A stretch of 12,824 bases of DNA from a virus (taxonomy: Duplodnaviria; Heunggongvirae; Uroviricota; Caudoviricetes). Every line of letters begins with the position of its first letter. The stretch's first letter is position 1. Under the pieces are notes generated by a model. It searched no databases, was not told the origin of the DNA, and saw only the letters and a program-made list of their open reading frames with translations. The stretch lies in the IMG/VR virus record IMGVR_UViG_2740892209_000012; one strand, 5' to 3'. This document shows, in pieces, positions 1-12,824 of this stretch. The position numbers were made by a program, and so were the translations under genes.

Positions 1-170
1 GTTAAGCATCCACAGGCTGGTATCTGCAACCGATTATAACGGATGCTTAACGTAATGCGTGAAGTATGGACATATTTTATCAATTAGTGTTTTTTGCCGT
101 TTCATAATGTTTCAGATTGTTCATTATGTTTTTGATTATCAACGGATTTGCTATTTTCCTTGTTTCAGCT

Positions 171-227
171 TGTTTCACGTTGTAGCGCTTTGTGCAACGA
201 TCGGTGTAGTTAATGGTGTAGTTAATT
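171..227. repeat. attL: left copy of attachment-site direct repeat
   Basis: 192-227 matches 11247-11282 at 35 of 36 positions; similarity extends to 171-183 vs 11226-11238, with a divergent 8-bp patch between. Core contains tandem GGTGTAGTTAAT x2 (203-226). Confidence 0.75.
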
Positions 228-1478
228 GTGATGACCGGAATCAAAATTATGCGCAGAGCACTTAACAAACTGAGTGATACACAGCTAAGGAAAATCAACG
301 GCACACCCGCCCAAAAAACAGCCTTTCTTAATGACGGTGGAAACCTGAGCGTCAGGCATTCAACCAGCGGCCTTTTAACCTGGTATTTCACCTACAGGGC
401 CGGAACGGGAAGGGGAGCACGACCGGAACGGATTAAGCTGGGAAATTATCCTGATCTGAGTCTGAAAGCTGCCAGGGAAAAAGCGGCACAGTGTCGCGCT
501 TGGCTTGCTGAGGGGAAAAATCCACGTCATGAGATGAATTACACCGTACAGAAAGCGTTAAAGCCCGTAACGGTTGGCGATGCGCTTACCTACTGGCTTG
601 AGTCTTACGTAAAGGAAAACCGCGTGGATTATGCCGCCCTGAAAAAGCGCCTTAATAATCACGTAATACAGCACATTGGTGCTATGCCGCTGGATAAATG
701 CGAGCTACGGCACTGGCTGGCCTGTTTTGACCAGGTGGCAAAGCGAACGCCTGTTACTGCCGGATTCTTGCTACAGACGTGCAAACAGGCGCTTAAGTTC
801 TGCCGGAGGCGGCGCTATGCAATCAGCAACGTTCTTGATGATATGAGTGTGGCGGACGTTGGGAAAAAACCGGATATAAGCGAGCGTGTCTTAAGCACCA
901 AAGAACTTGGCGAATTATTGCAGGCACTGGACAAAAAAATATTTTCCCCTTACTACGTCGCACTAATCCGCCTCCTGATTGTTTTCGGATGCCGGACGGT
1001 AGAACTGAGGTTATCGGAGATCAGCGAGTGGGATTTTACCGAAATGCTCTGGACCGTGCCGAAAGAACACAGCAAAACGAAGGTGGCAATATTCCGGCCC
1101 ATACCGGAAGCAATACTGCCGTTCGTCACGCAGCTGGTGGAGCAGAACAGGCACACGGGCTTATTGCTGGGGGAAGTGAAACAGGAAACAAGCGTGTCGC
1201 AGTACGGCAGATTAGCGCACAGGAGGCTAAAACACCCTCACTGGTCACTGCATGACATCCGGCGCACCTTTACAACGATGCTGAACGATTTAGGCGTGGA
1301 TCCTCACGTCGTGGAGCAGCTTACAGGTCATCAGATGCCAGGGATGCAACGAGTCTATAACCATTCCCGTTATCTGGATGCGAAACGTGACGCGCTGGAT
1401 ATGTGGACGGAGCGGTTAGGGATACTGGCGGGAACACATGAAAACGTAACCACATTGCCAATAGCCAGAGAAATATAA
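228..1478 (+). CDS. int: Tyrosine recombinase / integrase, P4-family type
   Basis: 416-codon ORF. N-terminal arm-binding-like pattern (LNDGGNLSVR, WYFTYR, IKLGNYPDLSL..AR) and C-terminal catalytic signature (LHDIRRTF, GH......Y) typical of P4-like integrases. Begins right after the attL core. Start uncertain: GTG 228, ATG 231 or ATG 249. Confidence 0.9.
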   Translation: MMTGIKIMRRALNKLSDTQLRKINGTPAQKTAFLNDGGNLSVRHSTSGLLTWYFTYRAGTGRGARPERIKLGNYPDLSLKAAREKAAQCRAWLAEGKNPRHEMNYTVQKALKPVTVGDALTYWLESYVKENRVDYAALKKRLNNHVIQHIGAMPLDKCELRHWLACFDQVAKRTPVTAGFLLQTCKQALKFCRRRRYAISNVLDDMSVADVGKKPDISERVLSTKELGELLQALDKKIFSPYYVALIRLLIVFGCRTVELRLSEISEWDFTEMLWTVPKEHSKTKVAIFRPIPEAILPFVTQLVEQNRHTGLLLGEVKQETSVSQYGRLAHRRLKHPHWSLHDIRRTFTTMLNDLGVDPHVVEQLTGHQMPGMQRVYNHSRYLDAKRDALDMWTERLGILAGTHENVTTLPIAREI

Positions 1479-1500
1479 TTTTTTTTGCGATTTTTCAGGA

Positions 1501-1560
1501 TGCGGACAACGTGAAACAACGAGACACAACGACGAACAACAAGGAACAAAATGGAACAAC
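1501..1560. repeat. Six tandem 10-bp units each ending ACAAC/ACAAA, exactly helically phased
   Basis: tgcggACAAC gtgaaACAAC gagacACAAC gacgaACAAC aaggaACAAA atggaACAAC, directly after the int stop; a second CA-rich phased array (ACACAA units) at 1761-1810 flanks the AT-rich alpA upstream region. Confidence 0.6.
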
Positions 1561-1843
1561 GGGTTAAAAATCAGCCATCGTAATAACCATTTGATTTTTA
1601 TAGGTGTACTGTTTTTTTATACACTGGCGAATCACTCTTAAAAATATGTAAAAAAGGCGTAAAAGTAAAATTTTATGCCTTTGCATCATAATGAATTAAA
1701 AGAGTTTTTATTCTCATTCCCCCTGCTTCTGTAAAACGACCGCCGCCAGTGTTTGCCATTCCACAAACACCCTGACACAATCCGACACAACCCAACCCAA
1801 TAATCCACCCAATGACTCTTTAAGAAACAACAAAGGGGGAATT

Positions 1844-2032
1844 GTGTTAAGCACAGATCGCTTTATACGTGAAAAAGAATGTCAGCAACTTACAGGCCTG
1901 AGCCGCTCATGTCGGTACCGCCTGGAAAAAGCCGGACAATTCCCATCACGGCGTAAGCTGGGCGGTCGTTCCGTTGGCTGGTCTTTATCCGAAGTTTTGG
2001 CATGGAAGGACAGCTGCGAGGCAGTTCACTAA
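1844..2032 (+). CDS. alpA: AlpA/Vis-family HTH regulator (excision and transcription activator type)
   Basis: 62-aa ORF with GTG start preceded by AAGGGGGA Shine-Dalgarno; FIREKECQQLTGLSRSCRYRLEKAGQFPSRRKLGGRSVGWSLSEVLAW matches the AlpA-type small HTH pattern; position immediately downstream of int as in Gram-negative PICIs. Confidence 0.8.
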   Translation: MLSTDRFIREKECQQLTGLSRSCRYRLEKAGQFPSRRKLGGRSVGWSLSEVLAWKDSCEAVH

Positions 2033-2084: not shown

Positions 2085-3371
2085 ATGAATACTGGATATT
2101 CTCCCGAACAAGGGCGGGGCTTCGTTCGTCCTGAAAAACAGAATCTGCAAAATTTTGCCGAAATTATTCCGGTTATTTCCGGCCTTACTGGCGGGAGTGA
2201 AACCAATATTGTTAACGCCAGAGCGTTGCAGATGTTTGATGATAAAAAGGGAGTAAATTTAACTTACACCCCTGACGGCAATCAGAATATGAGCATTATC
2301 TCTGAGTCAGGTTTCTACAAACTAATAAAAACAAAAAGCGCCCCGTTGCCGGAGCGCCTTTGTGAACAATTAACCTACTGCGCAAAAAATGAATCTGAGC
2401 AGTGGGATTATATCAACCATGTGGAGAAGCGCCACAATTGCCGAATAACGGGCAAAACAAAGGCCACCCGCTACAGTGGCCCCTCGACACAAGCTACACG
2501 TTATCCCCAACGCATGAGCATTGCCAACAATGCCACATTTGCGGCTGGTGGGCAATGCAATCAGTCTGGTTCAGTTCGTTGCCATACCTGCAATGAGCGC
2601 TTTTCCCTGTACTCTTTAAGGAATTGCTCAAGGGCAAAAGCACATGGCGCGAATCTTTCTGATTCATGCTCTATCTTTCTGCGCCGTCTTTTCCGTGCCG
2701 GTGATAATGTTTTGGTCAATTCTTTATCGGTCATTGTGTTGTCCTGCATAGCAATGCGCCGTAGTTACTCACACCACGGCGCTGGTGATGGTTACTCCTG
2801 CTCTTTGGCCTTGCGGCGCTGGCGGCGTTTGATTTCGCCGCGCATGGCTGCGTTTATAAACTGTCCCGTGCTTTCGCCTTCTTCTTTCACGTTCTCCATG
2901 CCTTCAATAATTTCATGGGCAATACGTGCAGTTACAGATTGTGATTTTGCATTCTTTGGACCCGTTGCCATGTTTAACCCCTCATGTTTTTGGTGTAAGA
3001 CAATATACACGAAAAAAAAATATTTTGAAGGGTTGGCGTGTAAGACACCATTGTTTTACATTGTGTCTTACACCTTATTGATGAAAGGCACAGAAACGAC
3101 GAAACCCCGCACTGTAGGAGCAGTAACGGGGCTTCTAACCACCAACGATAGCAACAGTATCGAGGTAGCTATGAGAAATCATACCACACACCCGAAAGGG
3201 CGGGACTCGCACAACCTGAATAAATACATCTGGCGTTTTATCGCCCTGAGCACGGCACAACCGCGCGTGATTACCATTGAGGCCACCAGCGAACAGGAAG
3301 CACGCCAGCAATCTCCGGCTGGCTGCGTGATGGTATTTGCTGCCCGTATTCGTCAGGGGGTAGGCTTATGA
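2085..3371 (+). CDS. Questionable 428-codon open frame; probably not one gene. Only the N-terminal ~85 codons look protein-like (BRO-N/antirepressor-like ISESGFYKLI motif)
   Basis: No stop for 1287 nt, but the central part is Cys/Ser/Arg/Leu-rich junk-like translation, runs antisense to a well-supported small minus-strand gene (2792-2971), and reads through an AT-rich operator/promoter region (2993-3080). The 3' end coincides with the Icd-like ORF starting at 3171. Confidence 0.2.
   Translation: MNTGYSPEQGRGFVRPEKQNLQNFAEIIPVISGLTGGSETNIVNARALQMFDDKKGVNLTYTPDGNQNMSIISESGFYKLIKTKSAPLPERLCEQLTYCAKNESEQWDYINHVEKRHNCRITGKTKATRYSGPSTQATRYPQRMSIANNATFAAGGQCNQSGSVRCHTCNERFSLYSLRNCSRAKAHGANLSDSCSIFLRRLFRAGDNVLVNSLSVIVLSCIAMRRSYSHHGAGDGYSCSLALRRWRRLISPRMAAFINCPVLSPSSFTFSMPSIISWAIRAVTDCDFAFFGPVAMFNPSCFWCKTIYTKKKYFEGLACKTPLFYIVSYTLLMKGTETTKPRTVGAVTGLLTTNDSNSIEVAMRNHTTHPKGRDSHNLNKYIWRFIALSTAQPRVITIEATSEQEARQQSPAGCVMVFAARIRQGVGL
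2324..2357 (-). terminator. Candidate intrinsic terminator for leftward transcription
   Basis: Stem GCGCCCCG (2338-2345) / CGGAGCGC (2350-2357), loop TTGC; on the minus strand it is followed by TTTTTGTTTTTATT (complement of 2324-2337). Confidence 0.35.
2792..2971 (-). CDS. Small basic hypothetical protein (59 aa), candidate autoregulated regulator
   Basis: Minus-strand ATG at 2971 preceded by GAGGGG Shine-Dalgarno (6-nt spacing); protein-like K/E-rich composition (MATGPKNAKSQSVTARIAHEIIEG...KRRQRRKAKEQE); promoter-like -35 TTCAAA / -10 TATATT upstream with a GTGTAAGACA operator-like repeat overlapping the -10/start region. Confidence 0.5.
   Translation of the reverse strand: MATGPKNAKSQSVTARIAHEIIEGMENVKEEGESTGQFINAAMRGEIKRRQRRKAKEQE
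2993..3073. promoter_or_regulatory. Divergent promoter/operator region with three GTGTAAGACA half-sites
   Basis: GTGTAAGACA at 2993-3002; perfect 11-bp inverted repeat GTGTAAGACAC (3038-3048) / GTGTCTTACAC (3063-3073) with a 14-bp spacer; lies between the minus-strand small gene and the plus-strand Icd-like ORF; -35-like TTTACA at 3055-3060 on the plus strand. Confidence 0.55.
3171..3371 (+). CDS. Icd-like small protein (host cell division inhibitor-like family seen in P1/P4-type immunity regions)
   Basis: ATG 3171 preceded by GAGG (5-nt spacing); 66 aa; the YIWRFIALSTAQPRVITIEATSEQEARQQSPAGCVMVFAARIR pattern resembles recalled Icd-like proteins; stop overlaps the next start (ATGA at 3368-3371). 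Confidence 0.45.
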   Translation: MRNHTTHPKGRDSHNLNKYIWRFIALSTAQPRVITIEATSEQEARQQSPAGCVMVFAARIRQGVGL

Positions 3372-4343: not shown

Positions 4344-6088
4344 AACTGGCACCGAACGTAAAAAAACAACCACGCGGAATAAAACACAAAGACACAGAGG
4401 TAATTATTTTCGCGGGTAGTGATGCGTGGTCACATGCAAAACAGTGGCAGGAGCAGGACGGCCCCGCATCCGGCGATAATGTGCCGCCTGTGTGGCTTGG
4501 GCCAAATCAGCTTGCCGAACTTGATGCGCTGAAAATTGTTCCGGATGGGAAAAAGCGCGTAAGGCTGTACCAGGCCGGAGAACTGGATTTGGTGGAGACC
4601 AAAAAGATTGGTCAGAAGCTGGCGGCGGCAGATATTCAGGACGCAAATTTTTACCCCGAAGGAATGCACGTCCAGAAGTGTGAAAACTGGCGGCGCTATC
4701 TGAATGCTGAGCGTGAAAATATTGCCGCAGGGCTTACCATGCCGGAGCAGAAAAATACGCAACTGGCACAAATGGCAGACAGTGAGCGCGCGCAGCTGCT
4801 TGCCGAGCGCTTTGATGGCGTTTGTGTGCATCCTGAAAGTGAAATCGTTCACGTATGGCGCGGCGGGGTATGGTGTCCGGTCAGCACAATGGAGCTGAGC
4901 CGCGAAATGGTGGCGATCTATTCAGAGCACAGGGCCACTTTCAGCAAGCGCGTAATCAATAACGCCGTGGAAGCGTTAAAAGTTATTGCCGAACCAATGG
5001 GCGAGCCGTCCGGCTATTTGCTGCCGTTCGCCAATGGTGCGCTTGACCTGAAAACGGGGGAATTTTCCCCGCACACGCCGGAGAACTGGATCACCACGCA
5101 CAACGGCATTGAGTACACGCCACCAGCACCAGGGGAGAACATCCGCGATAACGCGCCAAACTTTCATAAATGGCTTAAGCACGCAGCCGGAAAAGACCCG
5201 CGCAAGATGATGCGTATATGTGCCGCGCTGTACATGATTATGGCGAACCGGTACGACTGGCAGATGTTTATTGAGGCCACCGGAGACGGCGGGAGCGGTA
5301 AAAGTACATTCACACACATAGCCAGCCTTCTGGCAGGGAAACAGAACACGGTAAGCGCTGAAATGACATCGCTTGATGATGCTGGTGGACGTGCGCAGGT
5401 TGTCGGGAGTCGTCTTATCGTCCTGGCTGACCAGCCGAAATATACAGGCGAAGGAACGGGCATCAAGAAAATCACGGGCGGTGACCCCGTGGAAATTAAC
5501 CCGAAATACGAAAAGCGTTTCACGGCTGTAATCAGGGCGGTGGTGCTGGCGACCAACAATAACCCGATGATATTCACCGAACGGGCCGGAGGTGTGGCAC
5601 GTCGTCGCGTGATTTTCCGTTTCGACAATATCGTCAGTGAGGCCGAAAAAGACAGGGAGCTACCGGAAAAGATCGCGGCTGAAATCCCTGTCATTATCCG
5701 CCGATTGCTGGCGAACTTTACCGACCCTGAGAAGGCACGGGCTTTACTACTGGAACAGCGTGACGGTGATGAAGCACTGGCAATAAAGCAACAGACGGAT
5801 CCGGTTATTGAGTTTTGCCAGTTCCTGAATTTTCTGGAGGAAGCGCGCGGCCTGATGATGGGGGGCGGTGGCGATTCAGTGAAGTACACGACCAGGAACA
5901 GCCTTTACCGCGTCTATCTGGCGTTTATGGCATACGCAGGCAGGAGCAAACCGCTAAACGTAAATGACTTTGGAAAGGCTATGAAGCCTGCCGCAAAAGT
6001 TTACGGACATGAATATATTACGCGGAAAGTTAAGGGGGTAACGCAGACTAACGCAATAACAACAGACGAGTGCGACGCGTTTTTATAA
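4340..6088 (+). CDS. Primase/replication initiator with D5_N-like and SF3-helicase P-loop domains (P4 alpha C-terminal type; PICI pri-rep-like)
   Basis: 582-aa ORF; FANGALDLKTGEF motif (D5_N-like), Walker A GDGGSGKST, Walker B-like RLIVLADQ; immediately followed by an iteron array. Confidence 0.9.
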   Translation: MKLAPNVKKQPRGIKHKDTEVIIFAGSDAWSHAKQWQEQDGPASGDNVPPVWLGPNQLAELDALKIVPDGKKRVRLYQAGELDLVETKKIGQKLAAADIQDANFYPEGMHVQKCENWRRYLNAERENIAAGLTMPEQKNTQLAQMADSERAQLLAERFDGVCVHPESEIVHVWRGGVWCPVSTMELSREMVAIYSEHRATFSKRVINNAVEALKVIAEPMGEPSGYLLPFANGALDLKTGEFSPHTPENWITTHNGIEYTPPAPGENIRDNAPNFHKWLKHAAGKDPRKMMRICAALYMIMANRYDWQMFIEATGDGGSGKSTFTHIASLLAGKQNTVSAEMTSLDDAGGRAQVVGSRLIVLADQPKYTGEGTGIKKITGGDPVEINPKYEKRFTAVIRAVVLATNNNPMIFTERAGGVARRRVIFRFDNIVSEAEKDRELPEKIAAEIPVIIRRLLANFTDPEKARALLLEQRDGDEALAIKQQTDPVIEFCQFLNFLEEARGLMMGGGGDSVKYTTRNSLYRVYLAFMAYAGRSKPLNVNDFGKAMKPAAKVYGHEYITRKVKGVTQTNAITTDECDAFL

Positions 6089-6102
6089 TTTTTTGTAATT
6101 GC

Positions 6103-6328
6103 TGTCTACCCTGTCTACCTGAGTAAAGAAAAATACATTTAATTCAGTGCATTAAGTTAGGTAGATAGCCTTTTTTTACTGTCTACCCACTATCTACCCT
6201 CTCTACCTGATTTTACCTGAATCAGACAGGGAGGTAGACACGGGGTAGATAGTGGATAAAAGCACTCTACCCCGCTGAAAGCCGCGCCATTACTGGCATG
6301 AGGGCCACTAAGGTAGATAAGGTAGACA
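6103..6328. repeat. Iteron-type replication origin
   Basis: About 11 copies of TGTCTACC / TATCTACC / CTCTACC and the inverse GGTAGACA / GGTAGATA in both orientations (e.g. 6103-6110, 6112-6119, 6160-6168, 6180-6188, 6191-6199, 6233-6240, 6244-6252, 6312-6319, 6321-6328) around an AT-rich spacer, directly downstream of the replication protein gene. Confidence 0.7.
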
Positions 6329-6376
6329 AGGGGAGGCACAACTCAAAACTTTTTAAACGAGGGGGTAAAAATAAAT

Positions 6377-10977: not shown

Positions 10978-11225
10978 ACAATCCCCCATTGGGGGAGGCT
11001 GGGCGGCCTGCTGTGGGCTTTTCCACCATTGGTGGAAAGGCGCACATCTGGATCATCATTACGGTGATCAAGGGTATGTAAAACCCACCAGCCTGATTGA
11101 CATTTAACCGGAAAAAAGCCAGGTAGCCCCGTTATGGGGATCCCCATATCGACATTAACGCCCCTCATGAATTGGCGCGCTTCCCCCTGGAAAGATGACC
11201 CGCCTGTATATTTCTTGTGTCTATT

Positions 11226-11282
11226 TGTTCCACGTTGTTTCATACAGTGCAACGATCGGTGTAGTTAATGGTGTAGTCAATT
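11226..11282. repeat. attR: right copy of attachment-site direct repeat
   Basis: 11247-11282 matches 192-227 (35 of 36); the upstream block 11226-11238 matches 171-183. Confidence 0.75.
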
Positions 11283-11363
11283 TGCGATTTTTAGCACTTT
11301 TTGCAGTGCAAATCATTTAATTAAATCAATGGCTTGCCTTGATGTAGTGATAAAAGGACATAT

Positions 11364-12824
11364 TTATTCATCTTTCGGCGCAGAATGCTGGCGACCAAAA
11401 ATCACCTCCATCCGCGCACCGCCCAGCATGCTCTCTCCGGCGACGATTTTACCCTCATATTGCTCGGTGATTTCGCGGGCTACCGCCAGCCCCACACCTT
11501 GCCCAGGGCGTAAAGTATCAACCCGTTGACCACGGTCGAAAATGACCTCTCGCTTGCTTAATGGAATACCGGGGCCATCATCCTCGACCACAATATAGAG
11601 ATGCTCGTCGGTTTGCCTTGCAGAAATTTCGACAAACTCGAGGCAATATTTACAGGCGTTATCCAGCACGTTGCCCATCACTTCGACAAAATCGTTCTGC
11701 TCACCAACAAAGCTGATTTCTGGCGAGATATCGAGAGAGATATTGACCCCTTTGCGTTGATACACTTTGTTCAGCGCCGAGGTGAGATTGTCCAACAGTG
11801 GCGCGACCGGATGCAGCTCGCGGCTAAGCAATGTCCCGCCGCGCATACTGGCACGATGCAGGTAGTAGCCAATTTGCTGTGAAATGCGGCTGATTTGCTC
11901 CAGCATTACCGGCTCAGCATCACTGACGCTCATCTTCTCACTACGCAGAGAACGCAGCGTACTTTGCAGCACCGCCAGTGGCGTTTTCAGACTATGGGTC
12001 AGGTCGGTGAGCGTTGTACGATATTTGTCGTAACGTTCGCGTTCACTTTTTAACAGTCGGTTCAGGTTTCGTACCAGACTGGTCAGTTCTCGCGTTGTGG
12101 CTGGATTGAGCAATTCACGGTTATGTTCTTCCAGTTCGCGGACTTCTTTTGCCAGGGCTTCGATGGGGCGTAAACTCCACCAGGCGGCGACCCACAGCAG
12201 CGGGATCACTAACAGCAGATTGGCTGAGAGCACATAGATAAACCAGCTCCAGACCATATAGGAACTTTTTAGCTCCACCGGAATGGTATCCACCACCACA
12301 ATGGTTAACTTTGGCATCCGCGATGTTGCCGGGTAGACGTTTACCGCCACCGAGTGGGTCATCTCCGCGTCGTCATCATCTTCCCGCACTTCCTGCAACT
12401 GTTGCTGTATCGAATGATCTCCACTCAGCAAGAGGCTGGTATCGTTAACATCCGCTTCAATTTCATGAAAACCATTCGATTTCAGCCAGTCAGGCTGGAT
12501 CATCTTCATCAGCCAGGGCACGTCACGTTGCGCCCATAAAAGCTGCCCGTTCTCATCATAAATTAGTGTCATCGTGGGGCTTTGCTTGTCGATATTTTCG
12601 GGTAACTCGACATGCAACTTATTGTTTTCCCACTTCGCAAGGGTATAGAACAGATTGCTCTCGCCACGTAACAGCCGAAACGTGGTTTTATCGAAACTGA
12701 CGCTATAACCGATCAGCGCAACCATTCCGTAGGCAAGCGAAAGCACCAATACTACTGCTGCCGTTGCTAACAGAAAACGTACCCGCAGCGAGAGCGGGAA
12801 AAAAAGATGCAGTAATTTTTTCAT
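11364..12824 (-). CDS. phoQ: Sensor histidine kinase PhoQ (PhoP/PhoQ two-component system), complete
   Basis: 486-aa product matching recalled E. coli PhoQ essentially throughout: N-terminal transmembrane segment, periplasmic acidic patch [11 protein letters not shown], second transmembrane segment, H-box [15 protein letters not shown]-binding boxes DDGPGIP and [12 protein letters not shown]; start codon at the window edge (12822-12824). Confidence 0.97.

Follow-up and report, generated by a model that had tools for sequence, protein, structure and literature searches.

The stretch of DNA examined here, a 12,824-nucleotide IMG/VR record (IMGVR_UViG_2740892209_000012; hereafter, the window), is a phage satellite of Escherichia coli, i.e., a phage-inducible chromosomal island (PICI), and the subject of this report is a set of helically phased 10-bp repeats that lie between its integrase gene int and alpA. 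The island spans 11.3 kb and is inserted immediately past phoQ, with roxA as its other neighbor. Over the int-alpA region it shares 99.6% identity with the model island EcCICFT073, and the RefSeq proteins Int (WP_000085269) and AlpA (WP_000953274) are common to CFT073 and to a relative that is 100% identical to the window over positions 1400-1900; because of this near-identity and these shared proteins, the published genetics of EcCICFT073 applies to the window sequence. AlpA, which RefSeq annotates at the same position in EcCICFT073, matches Pfam Phage_AlpA (E 3e-18) and the AlpA-family PDB entry 8c3t; its start codon is GTG, read as V by the open reading frame (ORF) tool. The int-alpA region is laid out as follows, with all positions given in window coordinates.

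228..1478, plus strand: int, encoding a tyrosine integrase of the P4 family that carries Arm-DNA-bind_3 at its N terminus; the RefSeq start is the ATG at 249
1501..1560, plus strand: array 1, six head-to-tail 10-bp units nnGnrACAAy, beginning 23 bp past the int stop codon
1561..1752, unstranded: AT-rich spacer between the arrays, with a GC content of 22-33% over about 1540-1720, holding a conserved hairpin, a conserved block and a predicted curvature peak
1753..1781, plus strand: candidate sigma-70 alpA promoter (TTGCCA, 17 nt, CACAAT, with TG upstream), a consensus match only
1772..1801, plus strand: array 2, two good units and one degenerate unit oriented as in array 1, overlapping the -10/start region of the candidate alpA promoter
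1844..2032, plus strand: alpA, a 62-aa winged-helix protein (Phage_AlpA, PF05930)

Array 1 consists of the units TGCGGACAAC, GTGAAACAAC, GAGACACAAC, GACGAACAAC, AAGGAACAAA and ATGGAACAAC, in that order, with their ACAA cores starting at positions 1506, 1516, 1526, 1536, 1546 and 1556. An earlier note on this DNA had described six phased 10-bp units that all end in ACAAC; the six starts are indeed spaced by exactly 10 bp, whereas the ending holds for five of the six, the remaining unit closing with ACAAA. The word ACAAC is not itself enriched across the window, with 29 occurrences found versus 27.8 expected. When the window was shuffled 1,000 times with dinucleotide composition preserved, runs of at least three ACAA words at 10-bp steps arose at a mean of 0.002 per shuffle and were never longer than three, and when the 60-mer of array 1 was itself shuffled, none of 100,000 permutations gave a run of at least five. 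Tandem Repeats Finder (TRF) reported a period of 10 for array 1. Altogether, the phasing of array 1 is far beyond chance. Coding by the small minus-strand ORFs that cross array 1 (1370-1549 and 1416-1559) was discarded as an account of the repeats, since relatives carry 10- and 11-bp indels there. Replication-origin iterons were likewise set aside, as the repeat cluster at 6080-6340, after the primase gene, has unrelated sequences and is devoid of phased ACAA.

Related islands were detected in 859 of 5,426 complete E. coli genomes and in 80 IMG/VR contigs; an integrase search of genome contigs returned a single Shigella locus, and the diversity analyzed below was drawn from the E. coli genomes and IMG/VR. 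These islands occupy at least three chromosomal sites (roxA/phoQ, tqsA and comM), and their attachment (att) arm is common from just beyond the core. Conservation was assessed over the opening 140 nt of the int-alpA spacer, for which 42 distinct versions were compared. The recurrence in related islands that the earlier note had proposed to check was observed for array 1, which is present in all 42 versions, each with 5 to 7 in-register units. Within the unit, the three A residues of ACAA carry 1.8-2.0 bits of information and the C carries 1.1 bits, followed by the G at position -3 with 0.8 bits, while the remaining inter-core positions carry 0.2-0.3 bits. Units are reshuffled among relatives and their count changes in 10-bp steps; in the int-alpA spacer of one IMG/VR contig (L060), a single 10-bp unit is exactly duplicated (GAGCAACAAT). 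Since the ACAA cores are fixed and the bases between them diverge among relatives that are about 74-87% identical in the array region, selection appears to act on the motif once per helical turn. Another subfamily carries an 11-bp insertion upstream of array 1.

Units of the same kind are found on the opposite strand in both att arms of the island, where they accompany a doubled motif of 12-bp period. The features of the two island ends are listed below.

68-77: att core at the left island end, GGACATATTT
99..133, minus strand: attL arm block 1, four weaker units (GTTTCA, GTTTCA, GTTCA and GTTTTT, at 10-, 10- and 9-bp steps), the block nearer the core
158..193, minus strand: attL arm block 2, four units with TTGT at 160, 170, 180 and 190
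203..226, plus strand: doubled 12-bp-period motif of attL, GGTGTAGTTAAT twice, directly before int
11213..11243, minus strand: attR arm, three units with TTGT at 11215, 11225 and 11235
11258..11281, plus strand: doubled motif of attR, GGTGTAGTTAAT GGTGTAGTCAAT, co-oriented with the attL copy
11356-11365: att core at the right island end, the same decamer as on the left (GGACATATTT), sharing two bases with the phoQ stop codon

Read on the minus strand, attL block 2 comprises CTGAAACAAG, GTGAAACAAG, GCGCTACAAC and GTTGCACAAA and is conserved in relatives at three different chromosomal insertion sites, and the attR units, ATGAAACAAC, GTGGAACAAA and TAGACACAAG, are nearly identical to units of array 1. 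Several arm units differ from an array-1 unit by a single base, as seen with ATGAAACAAC versus ATGGAACAAC and GTGAAACAAG versus GTGAAACAAC. Phased ACAA runs of at least three occur in the window only at array 1 (six, plus strand), attL (four, minus strand) and attR (three, minus strand). A position weight matrix was built from the seven arm units alone and then scored across the window; elsewhere in the window, array 1 ranked first with phased-triplet scores of 21.9-27.8, and array 2 came next with 17.9. The arrays, their phasing, their conservation and the identity of units between array 1 and the arms are shown by these data. With cores conserved at 10-bp steps and units in both att arms, the proposal that the repeats form a one-face, cooperative protein array of the int/alpA module was supported.

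In both arms, the 10-bp units are followed by GTGCAACGATC and then by the doubled motif, GGTGTAGTTAAT x2, the distance between arm units and doubled 12-mer being 9-14 bp. Measured from the core center, the doubled motif lies about 130 bp away on the right side and about 80 bp away on the left, and the doubled 12-mer GGTGTAGTTAAT x2 probably constitutes the arm-type sites of the integrase. No sigma-70-like int promoter was found in window 1-300. Between the doubled motif and the core in attR, AATCAATGGCTTG at 11324-11336 fits the consensus of integration host factor (IHF), WATCAANNNNTTR.

The second array, which the earlier note had placed at 1761-1810 as a phased ACACAA array, is less regular than the first. 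An exact GACACAA unit occurs twice, as CTGACACAAT (1772-1781) and as CCGACACAAC (1782-1791); what surrounds them is either degenerate, as with the in-register unit CCAACCCAAT that follows CCGACACAAC, or out of register, as with CCACAAA at 1761. TRF gave array 2 a score of 35. The phased score of 17.9 obtained with the att-arm motif model compares with shuffle maxima that average 10.3 (standard deviation, 2.5; largest, 19.8), which suggests statistical support for array 2, albeit not decisive. In a first alignment, array 2 seemed unconserved, and sorting the relatives into promoter variants then showed that its units are kept: three variants of the promoter region exist among relatives, each with TTGCCA, 17 nt and (C/A)ACAAT, and each with a further unit behind these that reads nnGACACAAy or nnGACACATC. 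TTTGCCA and its 17-nt spacing to (C/A)ACAAT are kept in all relatives. Array 2 thus largely amounts to the candidate alpA core promoter, whose predicted -10/start region is covered by two units. The idea that two arrays flank the region upstream of alpA is therefore half right, as array 1 stands before that region and array 2 largely coincides with the promoter-like sequence TTGCCA-17-CACAAT.

The stretch between the arrays is AT-rich, as the earlier note had stated. In 61 of 70 loci, 220-221 bp (21.0 turns) separate the final array-1 core from the -10 unit, even though the whole spacer varies in length between 353 and 384 bp; this constancy is compatible with placement on the same DNA face, and shared ancestry could also explain it. 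Predicted curvature near position 1649 is the second-highest of the window and adjoins a hairpin at 1653-1682, whose 12-bp stem (AAAGGCGTAAAA / TTTTATGCCTTT) is conserved in relatives. Compensatory changes in this stem (GGCGT/ACGCC and GGCAT/ATGCC) were seen among relatives, and a G.U pair in the window would be tolerated only on the plus strand; the T-tract is better on the minus strand. The hairpin is probably the int terminator, and since it lies 3' of array 1 and probably terminates int transcripts, array 1 is probably inside the int 3' untranslated region (UTR). A block reading CTG(G/T)TTTTTTATACAY at 1608-1627, between array 1 and the hairpin, is kept in all relatives; promoter-like spacing was looked for in this block and not found.

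Published genetics of EcCICFT073 offers a guide to the protein that reads the units. There, alpA is required for transfer, and overexpression of AlpA leads to int-dependent excision and replication; helper phages induce alpA, and AlpA activates its own promoter in trans in a PalpA-lacZ fusion, while having no such effect on Pint (PMC6092414). By mapping the primer table of that study, we found that the PalpA-lacZ insert (pJP2038) corresponds to window 1446-1901, with both arrays and the spacer inside. Because this insert is activated by AlpA, an AlpA-responsive element must lie within it, and the arrays are its only arm-type repeats. The AlpA protein of CP4So is a proven excisionase (PMC5148205), and excisionases generally bind head to tail and cooperatively to direct repeats spaced one helix turn apart (PMC7498355). 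With moderate confidence, we propose that array 1 and the arm units are an operator array for AlpA, which would act both as excisionase, or recombination directionality factor, and as activator. The earlier note had listed AlpA, integrase arm binding and a helper-encoded activator as possible binders; among these AlpA is favored on two grounds given below, i.e., the layout of the sites and their covariation, and a helper activator would not be expected at the att arms.

The first ground is that the layout copies the mapped TorI sites of KplE1 (CPS-53), from which we infer AlpA as the binder. In KplE1, mutagenesis was used to test sites I1-I5 of attL (Panis et al. 2010, PMC2951348). These TorI sites are five in number and 8 bp long, with 2-nt gaps, and are grouped in two blocks that lie between the core and the int promoter; the IntS arm sites come next, by the start codon (PMC2951348). 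The KplE1 attL sequence that we examined, CAGTTCGTcaTGGTTCGCttCAGATCGT, carries GTTCG-type cores. As in KplE1, direct repeats of 10-bp period run here in two blocks from the att core toward the int start, followed by probable arm-type sites, so that attL reads two blocks of 10-bp units, doubled 12-mer and int, in that order. TorI and AlpA are both small winged-helix proteins, although only 26% identical. Unlike the situation here, TorI sites are described in attL only, where the int promoter is repressed; the window has in addition a six-unit array outside att, and AlpA has been published as activating alpA and leaving Pint unaffected.

The second ground is that the unit changes between island families while the integrase arm domain and the doubled 12-mer stay the same. 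A sister family at the cspD/yljB locus, between macB and the island (L016), has the doubled motif unchanged and an integrase arm domain 83% identical to that of the window, whereas its AlpA is 56.5% identical to the window AlpA, with substitutions in the helix-turn-helix. Its arm units, CTTGTTCGCC, have the core GTTCG (at 666, 676, 739 and 749), which is also the TorI core and occurs in one array-1 unit of the window, GACGAACAAC. Within the L016 int-alpA spacer, CGARC is found three times at exact 10-bp steps (2336, 2346 and 2356), an arrangement kept in three sub-variants. These comparisons suggest that arm and spacer units change together, and with AlpA rather than with the integrase arm domain. 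At about 2110-2150 of L016, as well as in L073-L096, a clear int terminator is followed by another 10-bp phased mini-array, (G/A)AATATC repeated two to three times; in some members of the family this mini-array reads AAGTTCG, and it is unlike the L016 arm units.

If AlpA is the reader, six AlpA monomers would fill array 1 cooperatively and head to tail, one per turn and on the same DNA face, bending the DNA, and in the arms, where the units adjoin the probable integrase arm sites, bound AlpA would give attL and attR the form needed for excision. A helper phage that raises AlpA would then bring about cooperative filling of the arrays, such that excision and expression of alpA and its downstream operon would be turned ON at one AlpA threshold; the latter step corresponds to the published positive autoregulation. 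As to how binding about 190 bp upstream might yield activation, we infer one of two routes: the curved AT-rich spacer may be freed from silencing, or AlpA on array 1 may make contact, in phase and on the same DNA face, with the two promoter units. Relief of silencing would fit because of the predicted curvature peak near 1649 and because H-NS silences the alpA promoter of the P4-like prophage CP4So (PMC5148205). In its fullest form, the proposal is that array 1, the promoter units 21 turns away across a curved AT-rich spacer and the arm arrays make up one AlpA-read circuit of about 17 sites, with a sharp threshold that fires excision together with a self-sustaining alpA ON state; we advance this circuit tentatively, as something possible rather than probable.

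Several observations weigh against AlpA as the reader. The covariation was seen in two families only, and in L016 the arm-derived 10-mer model did not pick out the spacer array, which is recovered only with the 5-mer core. Helper-embedded PICIs (HE-PICIs), whose AlpA is about 57% identical, have an int-alpA gap of only about 60 bp and no such array; they were considered as a third family for covariation and discarded, as they carry the doubled motif but next to no int-alpA spacer, and clear phased units are lacking. From the end of array 1 it is about 190 bp downstream to the -35 element of the sole promoter-like site, and the array-2 units, laid over the -10/start region, would predict repression, as opposed to the activation reported. 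The arm sites P'1-P'3 of lambda integrase are also tandem repeats, of about 10 bp, so that by geometry alone the integrase N-domain stays a candidate reader. Furthermore, AlpA left Pint-lacZ unchanged (PMC6092414), and the Pint-lacZ fragment, when we mapped it, proved to carry the whole attL arm; this lack of effect is a mild point against AlpA binding or may reflect a different promoter geometry.

The strongest rival is the integrase itself, i.e., that the 10-bp units are arm-type sites of its N-terminal Arm-DNA-bind_3 domain and that array 1 is an extra integrase array regulating int/alpA or sequestering integrase. Int does carry such an arm-binding domain, the units are present in both arms as integrase arm sites are, and the lambda precedent has the same repeat length; moreover, the reader of the doubled motif was left open in the HE-PICI study (PMC10111431). 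We nonetheless hold this to be unlikely, since the doubled 12-bp motif already provides four co-oriented half-sites, enough for an integrase tetramer, and is placed as are the IntS arm sites of KplE1. The doubled motif also tracks the integrase clade, being TGTATTGC in HE-PICIs (40-45% integrase identity) and TAGGCCCA in CP4-57, and between the window and L016 it is the 10-bp unit that differs despite the shared doubled motif and similar arm domain. A total of 17 or more units is atypical of arm sites, and array 1 is 1.43 kb from the attL core (68-77), leaving only the arm copies within the roughly 150 bp expected of such sites.

Another DNA-binding protein might read the units instead of AlpA or Int, either the helper-phage inducer of alpA or a host winged-helix regulator of the OmpR/PhoP type, which binds head-to-tail repeats of 10-11 bp. 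The unit G-n-r-A-C-A may resemble OmpR-type half-sites, and induction of alpA by helper phages (PMC6092414) leaves room for a phage protein. Neither protein would have an obvious reason to find phased sites in both att arms beside integrase sites, and this account is given little credence here. The unit core is not the same in the two island families although they share one host species, E. coli, which is more readily explained by a reader encoded on the island; a host factor is therefore unlikely. Pseudomonas AlpA, an antiterminator, was excluded as a model for the reader: that protein is Q-like, exceeds 140 residues and reads GGGACG between -35 and -10, so that the name shared with the 62-aa Phage_AlpA protein of the island is coincidental. 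Indeed, Pseudomonas AlpA has eight helices with its helix-turn-helix at residues 128-142 and a different site (PMC9371919).

A role as RNA was also weighed, in which array 1 would be an unstructured CA-rich tract of the int 3' UTR, or of read-through into alpA, bound by Hfq, another RNA-binding protein or AlpA. Array 1 follows the int stop codon and precedes the first conserved hairpin (1653-1682), so it is probably transcribed, and it is predicted to be unpaired; P4 Vis was reportedly described as RNA-binding by Piazzolla et al. in 2006. The suggestion of the earlier note that ARN-rich repeats could serve as an Hfq-binding tract was not supported: 10 is not divisible by 3, so repeats of this period cannot keep an unbroken (ARN)n register, and the triplets fall out of step inside every unit. 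Copies on the opposite strand in both att arms point to recognition of duplex DNA, a known RNA family was excluded by an Rfam scan of the whole window that gave no match, and ACAA is conserved, whereas GGA and other RNA motifs are not. An RNA function thus seems very improbable.

That the units are non-functional products of slippage or duplication, or intrinsically bent DNA with no specific partner, has hardly any standing despite unit numbers that vary in 10-bp steps, as from slippage, and a moderately raised predicted curvature of array 1 (14-17 degrees versus a window mean of 9), because fixed cores with diverging inter-core bases indicate motif selection rather than recent duplication and because array 1 is under the 95th percentile of the window (18.9 degrees) and array 2, at 6-7 degrees, below its average. 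These values are predictions of a wedge model. Phased-A-tract curved DNA was discarded on the same values, both arrays being below that percentile and array 1 having a single A4 run; the intrinsic bending proposed for the arrays was thus not supported, the peak falling instead in the spacer near 1649.

AlpA as a reader of both the arms and array 1 would place the island beside several known systems. For 186 Apl, P2 Cox and HP1 Cox (PMC7498355, PMC3936717), the layout is shared, with one small protein on turn-spaced direct repeats at att and at a second regulatory array; 186 Apl has five sites at att and seven at pR-pL and binds cooperatively, head to tail, with bending of DNA (PMC7498355). The Apl/Cox proteins belong to sequence families other than that of AlpA, and their second array represses the face-to-face promoters around it, whereas here the array is about 190 bp upstream of a promoter reported to be activated. 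BldC/RdfS-type MerR-like winged-helix proteins form cooperative head-to-tail filaments with one protomer per DNA turn and serve in transcription control and excision (PMC11963761). These are distant proteins of other organisms, and the analogy is mechanistic only. P4 Vis is cited as the AlpA-family relative case in PMC7498355 and PMC11963761, and PICI AlpA is only remotely related to Vis (PMC6092414).

As for the doubled motif, HE-PICIs have in attP the motif tgTGTATTGCa x2, for which a role in binding an integrase tetramer by its four arm domains was proposed (Mageeney et al. 2023, PMC10111431), and which was stated there as not found in other PICIs. Compared with it, GGTGTAGTTAAT x2 has the same 12-bp period, co-orientation and core distances (about 80 and about 130 bp), and the sequence differs; that study has no description of 10-bp phased units or of an int-alpA array, and HE-PICIs are almost devoid of an int-alpA spacer. 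CP4-57 carries TAGGCCCAnnnn x2 just before intA (L219, 693-716), and the doubled motif may therefore be a general arm-site layout of P4-family integrases. The intA-alpA region of CP4-57 has yfjH between the two genes and a CA-rich leader before alpA, with no comparable array. In that leader in K-12 (L219, 3205-3245), AACCAA occurs twice with a 10-bp step before the start codon, which recalls the ACCCAA/CCCAAT of array 2. P4 Vis is said to be encoded by the first gene of an operon leading to the primase, to be needed for excision, to bend att DNA and to regulate promoters.

Regarding the remainder of the island, its other products include a D5-type primase, SSB, a capsid protein and a Nu1-like small terminase. 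Where no island is present, as in E. coli K-12 (L010, 3290-3330), the site reads GGGCATATTT; since the right core copy overlaps the phoQ stop codon, the island splits phoQ from its native downstream hairpin (window 1-52). A 428-aa ORF right after alpA (2085-3371) has no Pfam match, and because neither CFT073 nor L001, a relative that is identical elsewhere, has the same accessory zone, the islands are mosaic there. Directly 3' of the D5-type primase gene, short tandem repeats are clustered at 6080-6340 (TTTTTATAAT, CTGTCTACC, ACTATCTACCC, AGACACGGAGGT and TAAGGTAGA), and the island probably has its replication origin in this cluster.

Among phage-inducible islands of Gram-negative bacteria, EcCICFT073 serves as the reference, and published work shows AlpA to be its master activator. 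In the literature that was searched, we found no mapping of AlpA binding sites in PICIs, no data on cooperative binding or bending by PICI AlpA, and no description of array 1 or of units shared between arm and spacer. That an excisionase has a second regulatory array is a principle already known from 186, P2 and KplE1. What the present analysis brings is that the switch becomes testable, with a defined unit, nnGnrACAAy, in arrays at the att arms and upstream of alpA, inside an existing reporter fragment. Furthermore, a likely reader is named for each of the two classes of att repeats in this PICI, AlpA for the 10-bp units and integrase for the doubled 12-mers, and the doubled-motif geometry is extended beyond helper-embedded PICIs. 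If the AlpA-read circuit proves true, the array would be the missing cis-element of Gram-negative PICI induction, and perhaps the place where the helper-phage signal acts.

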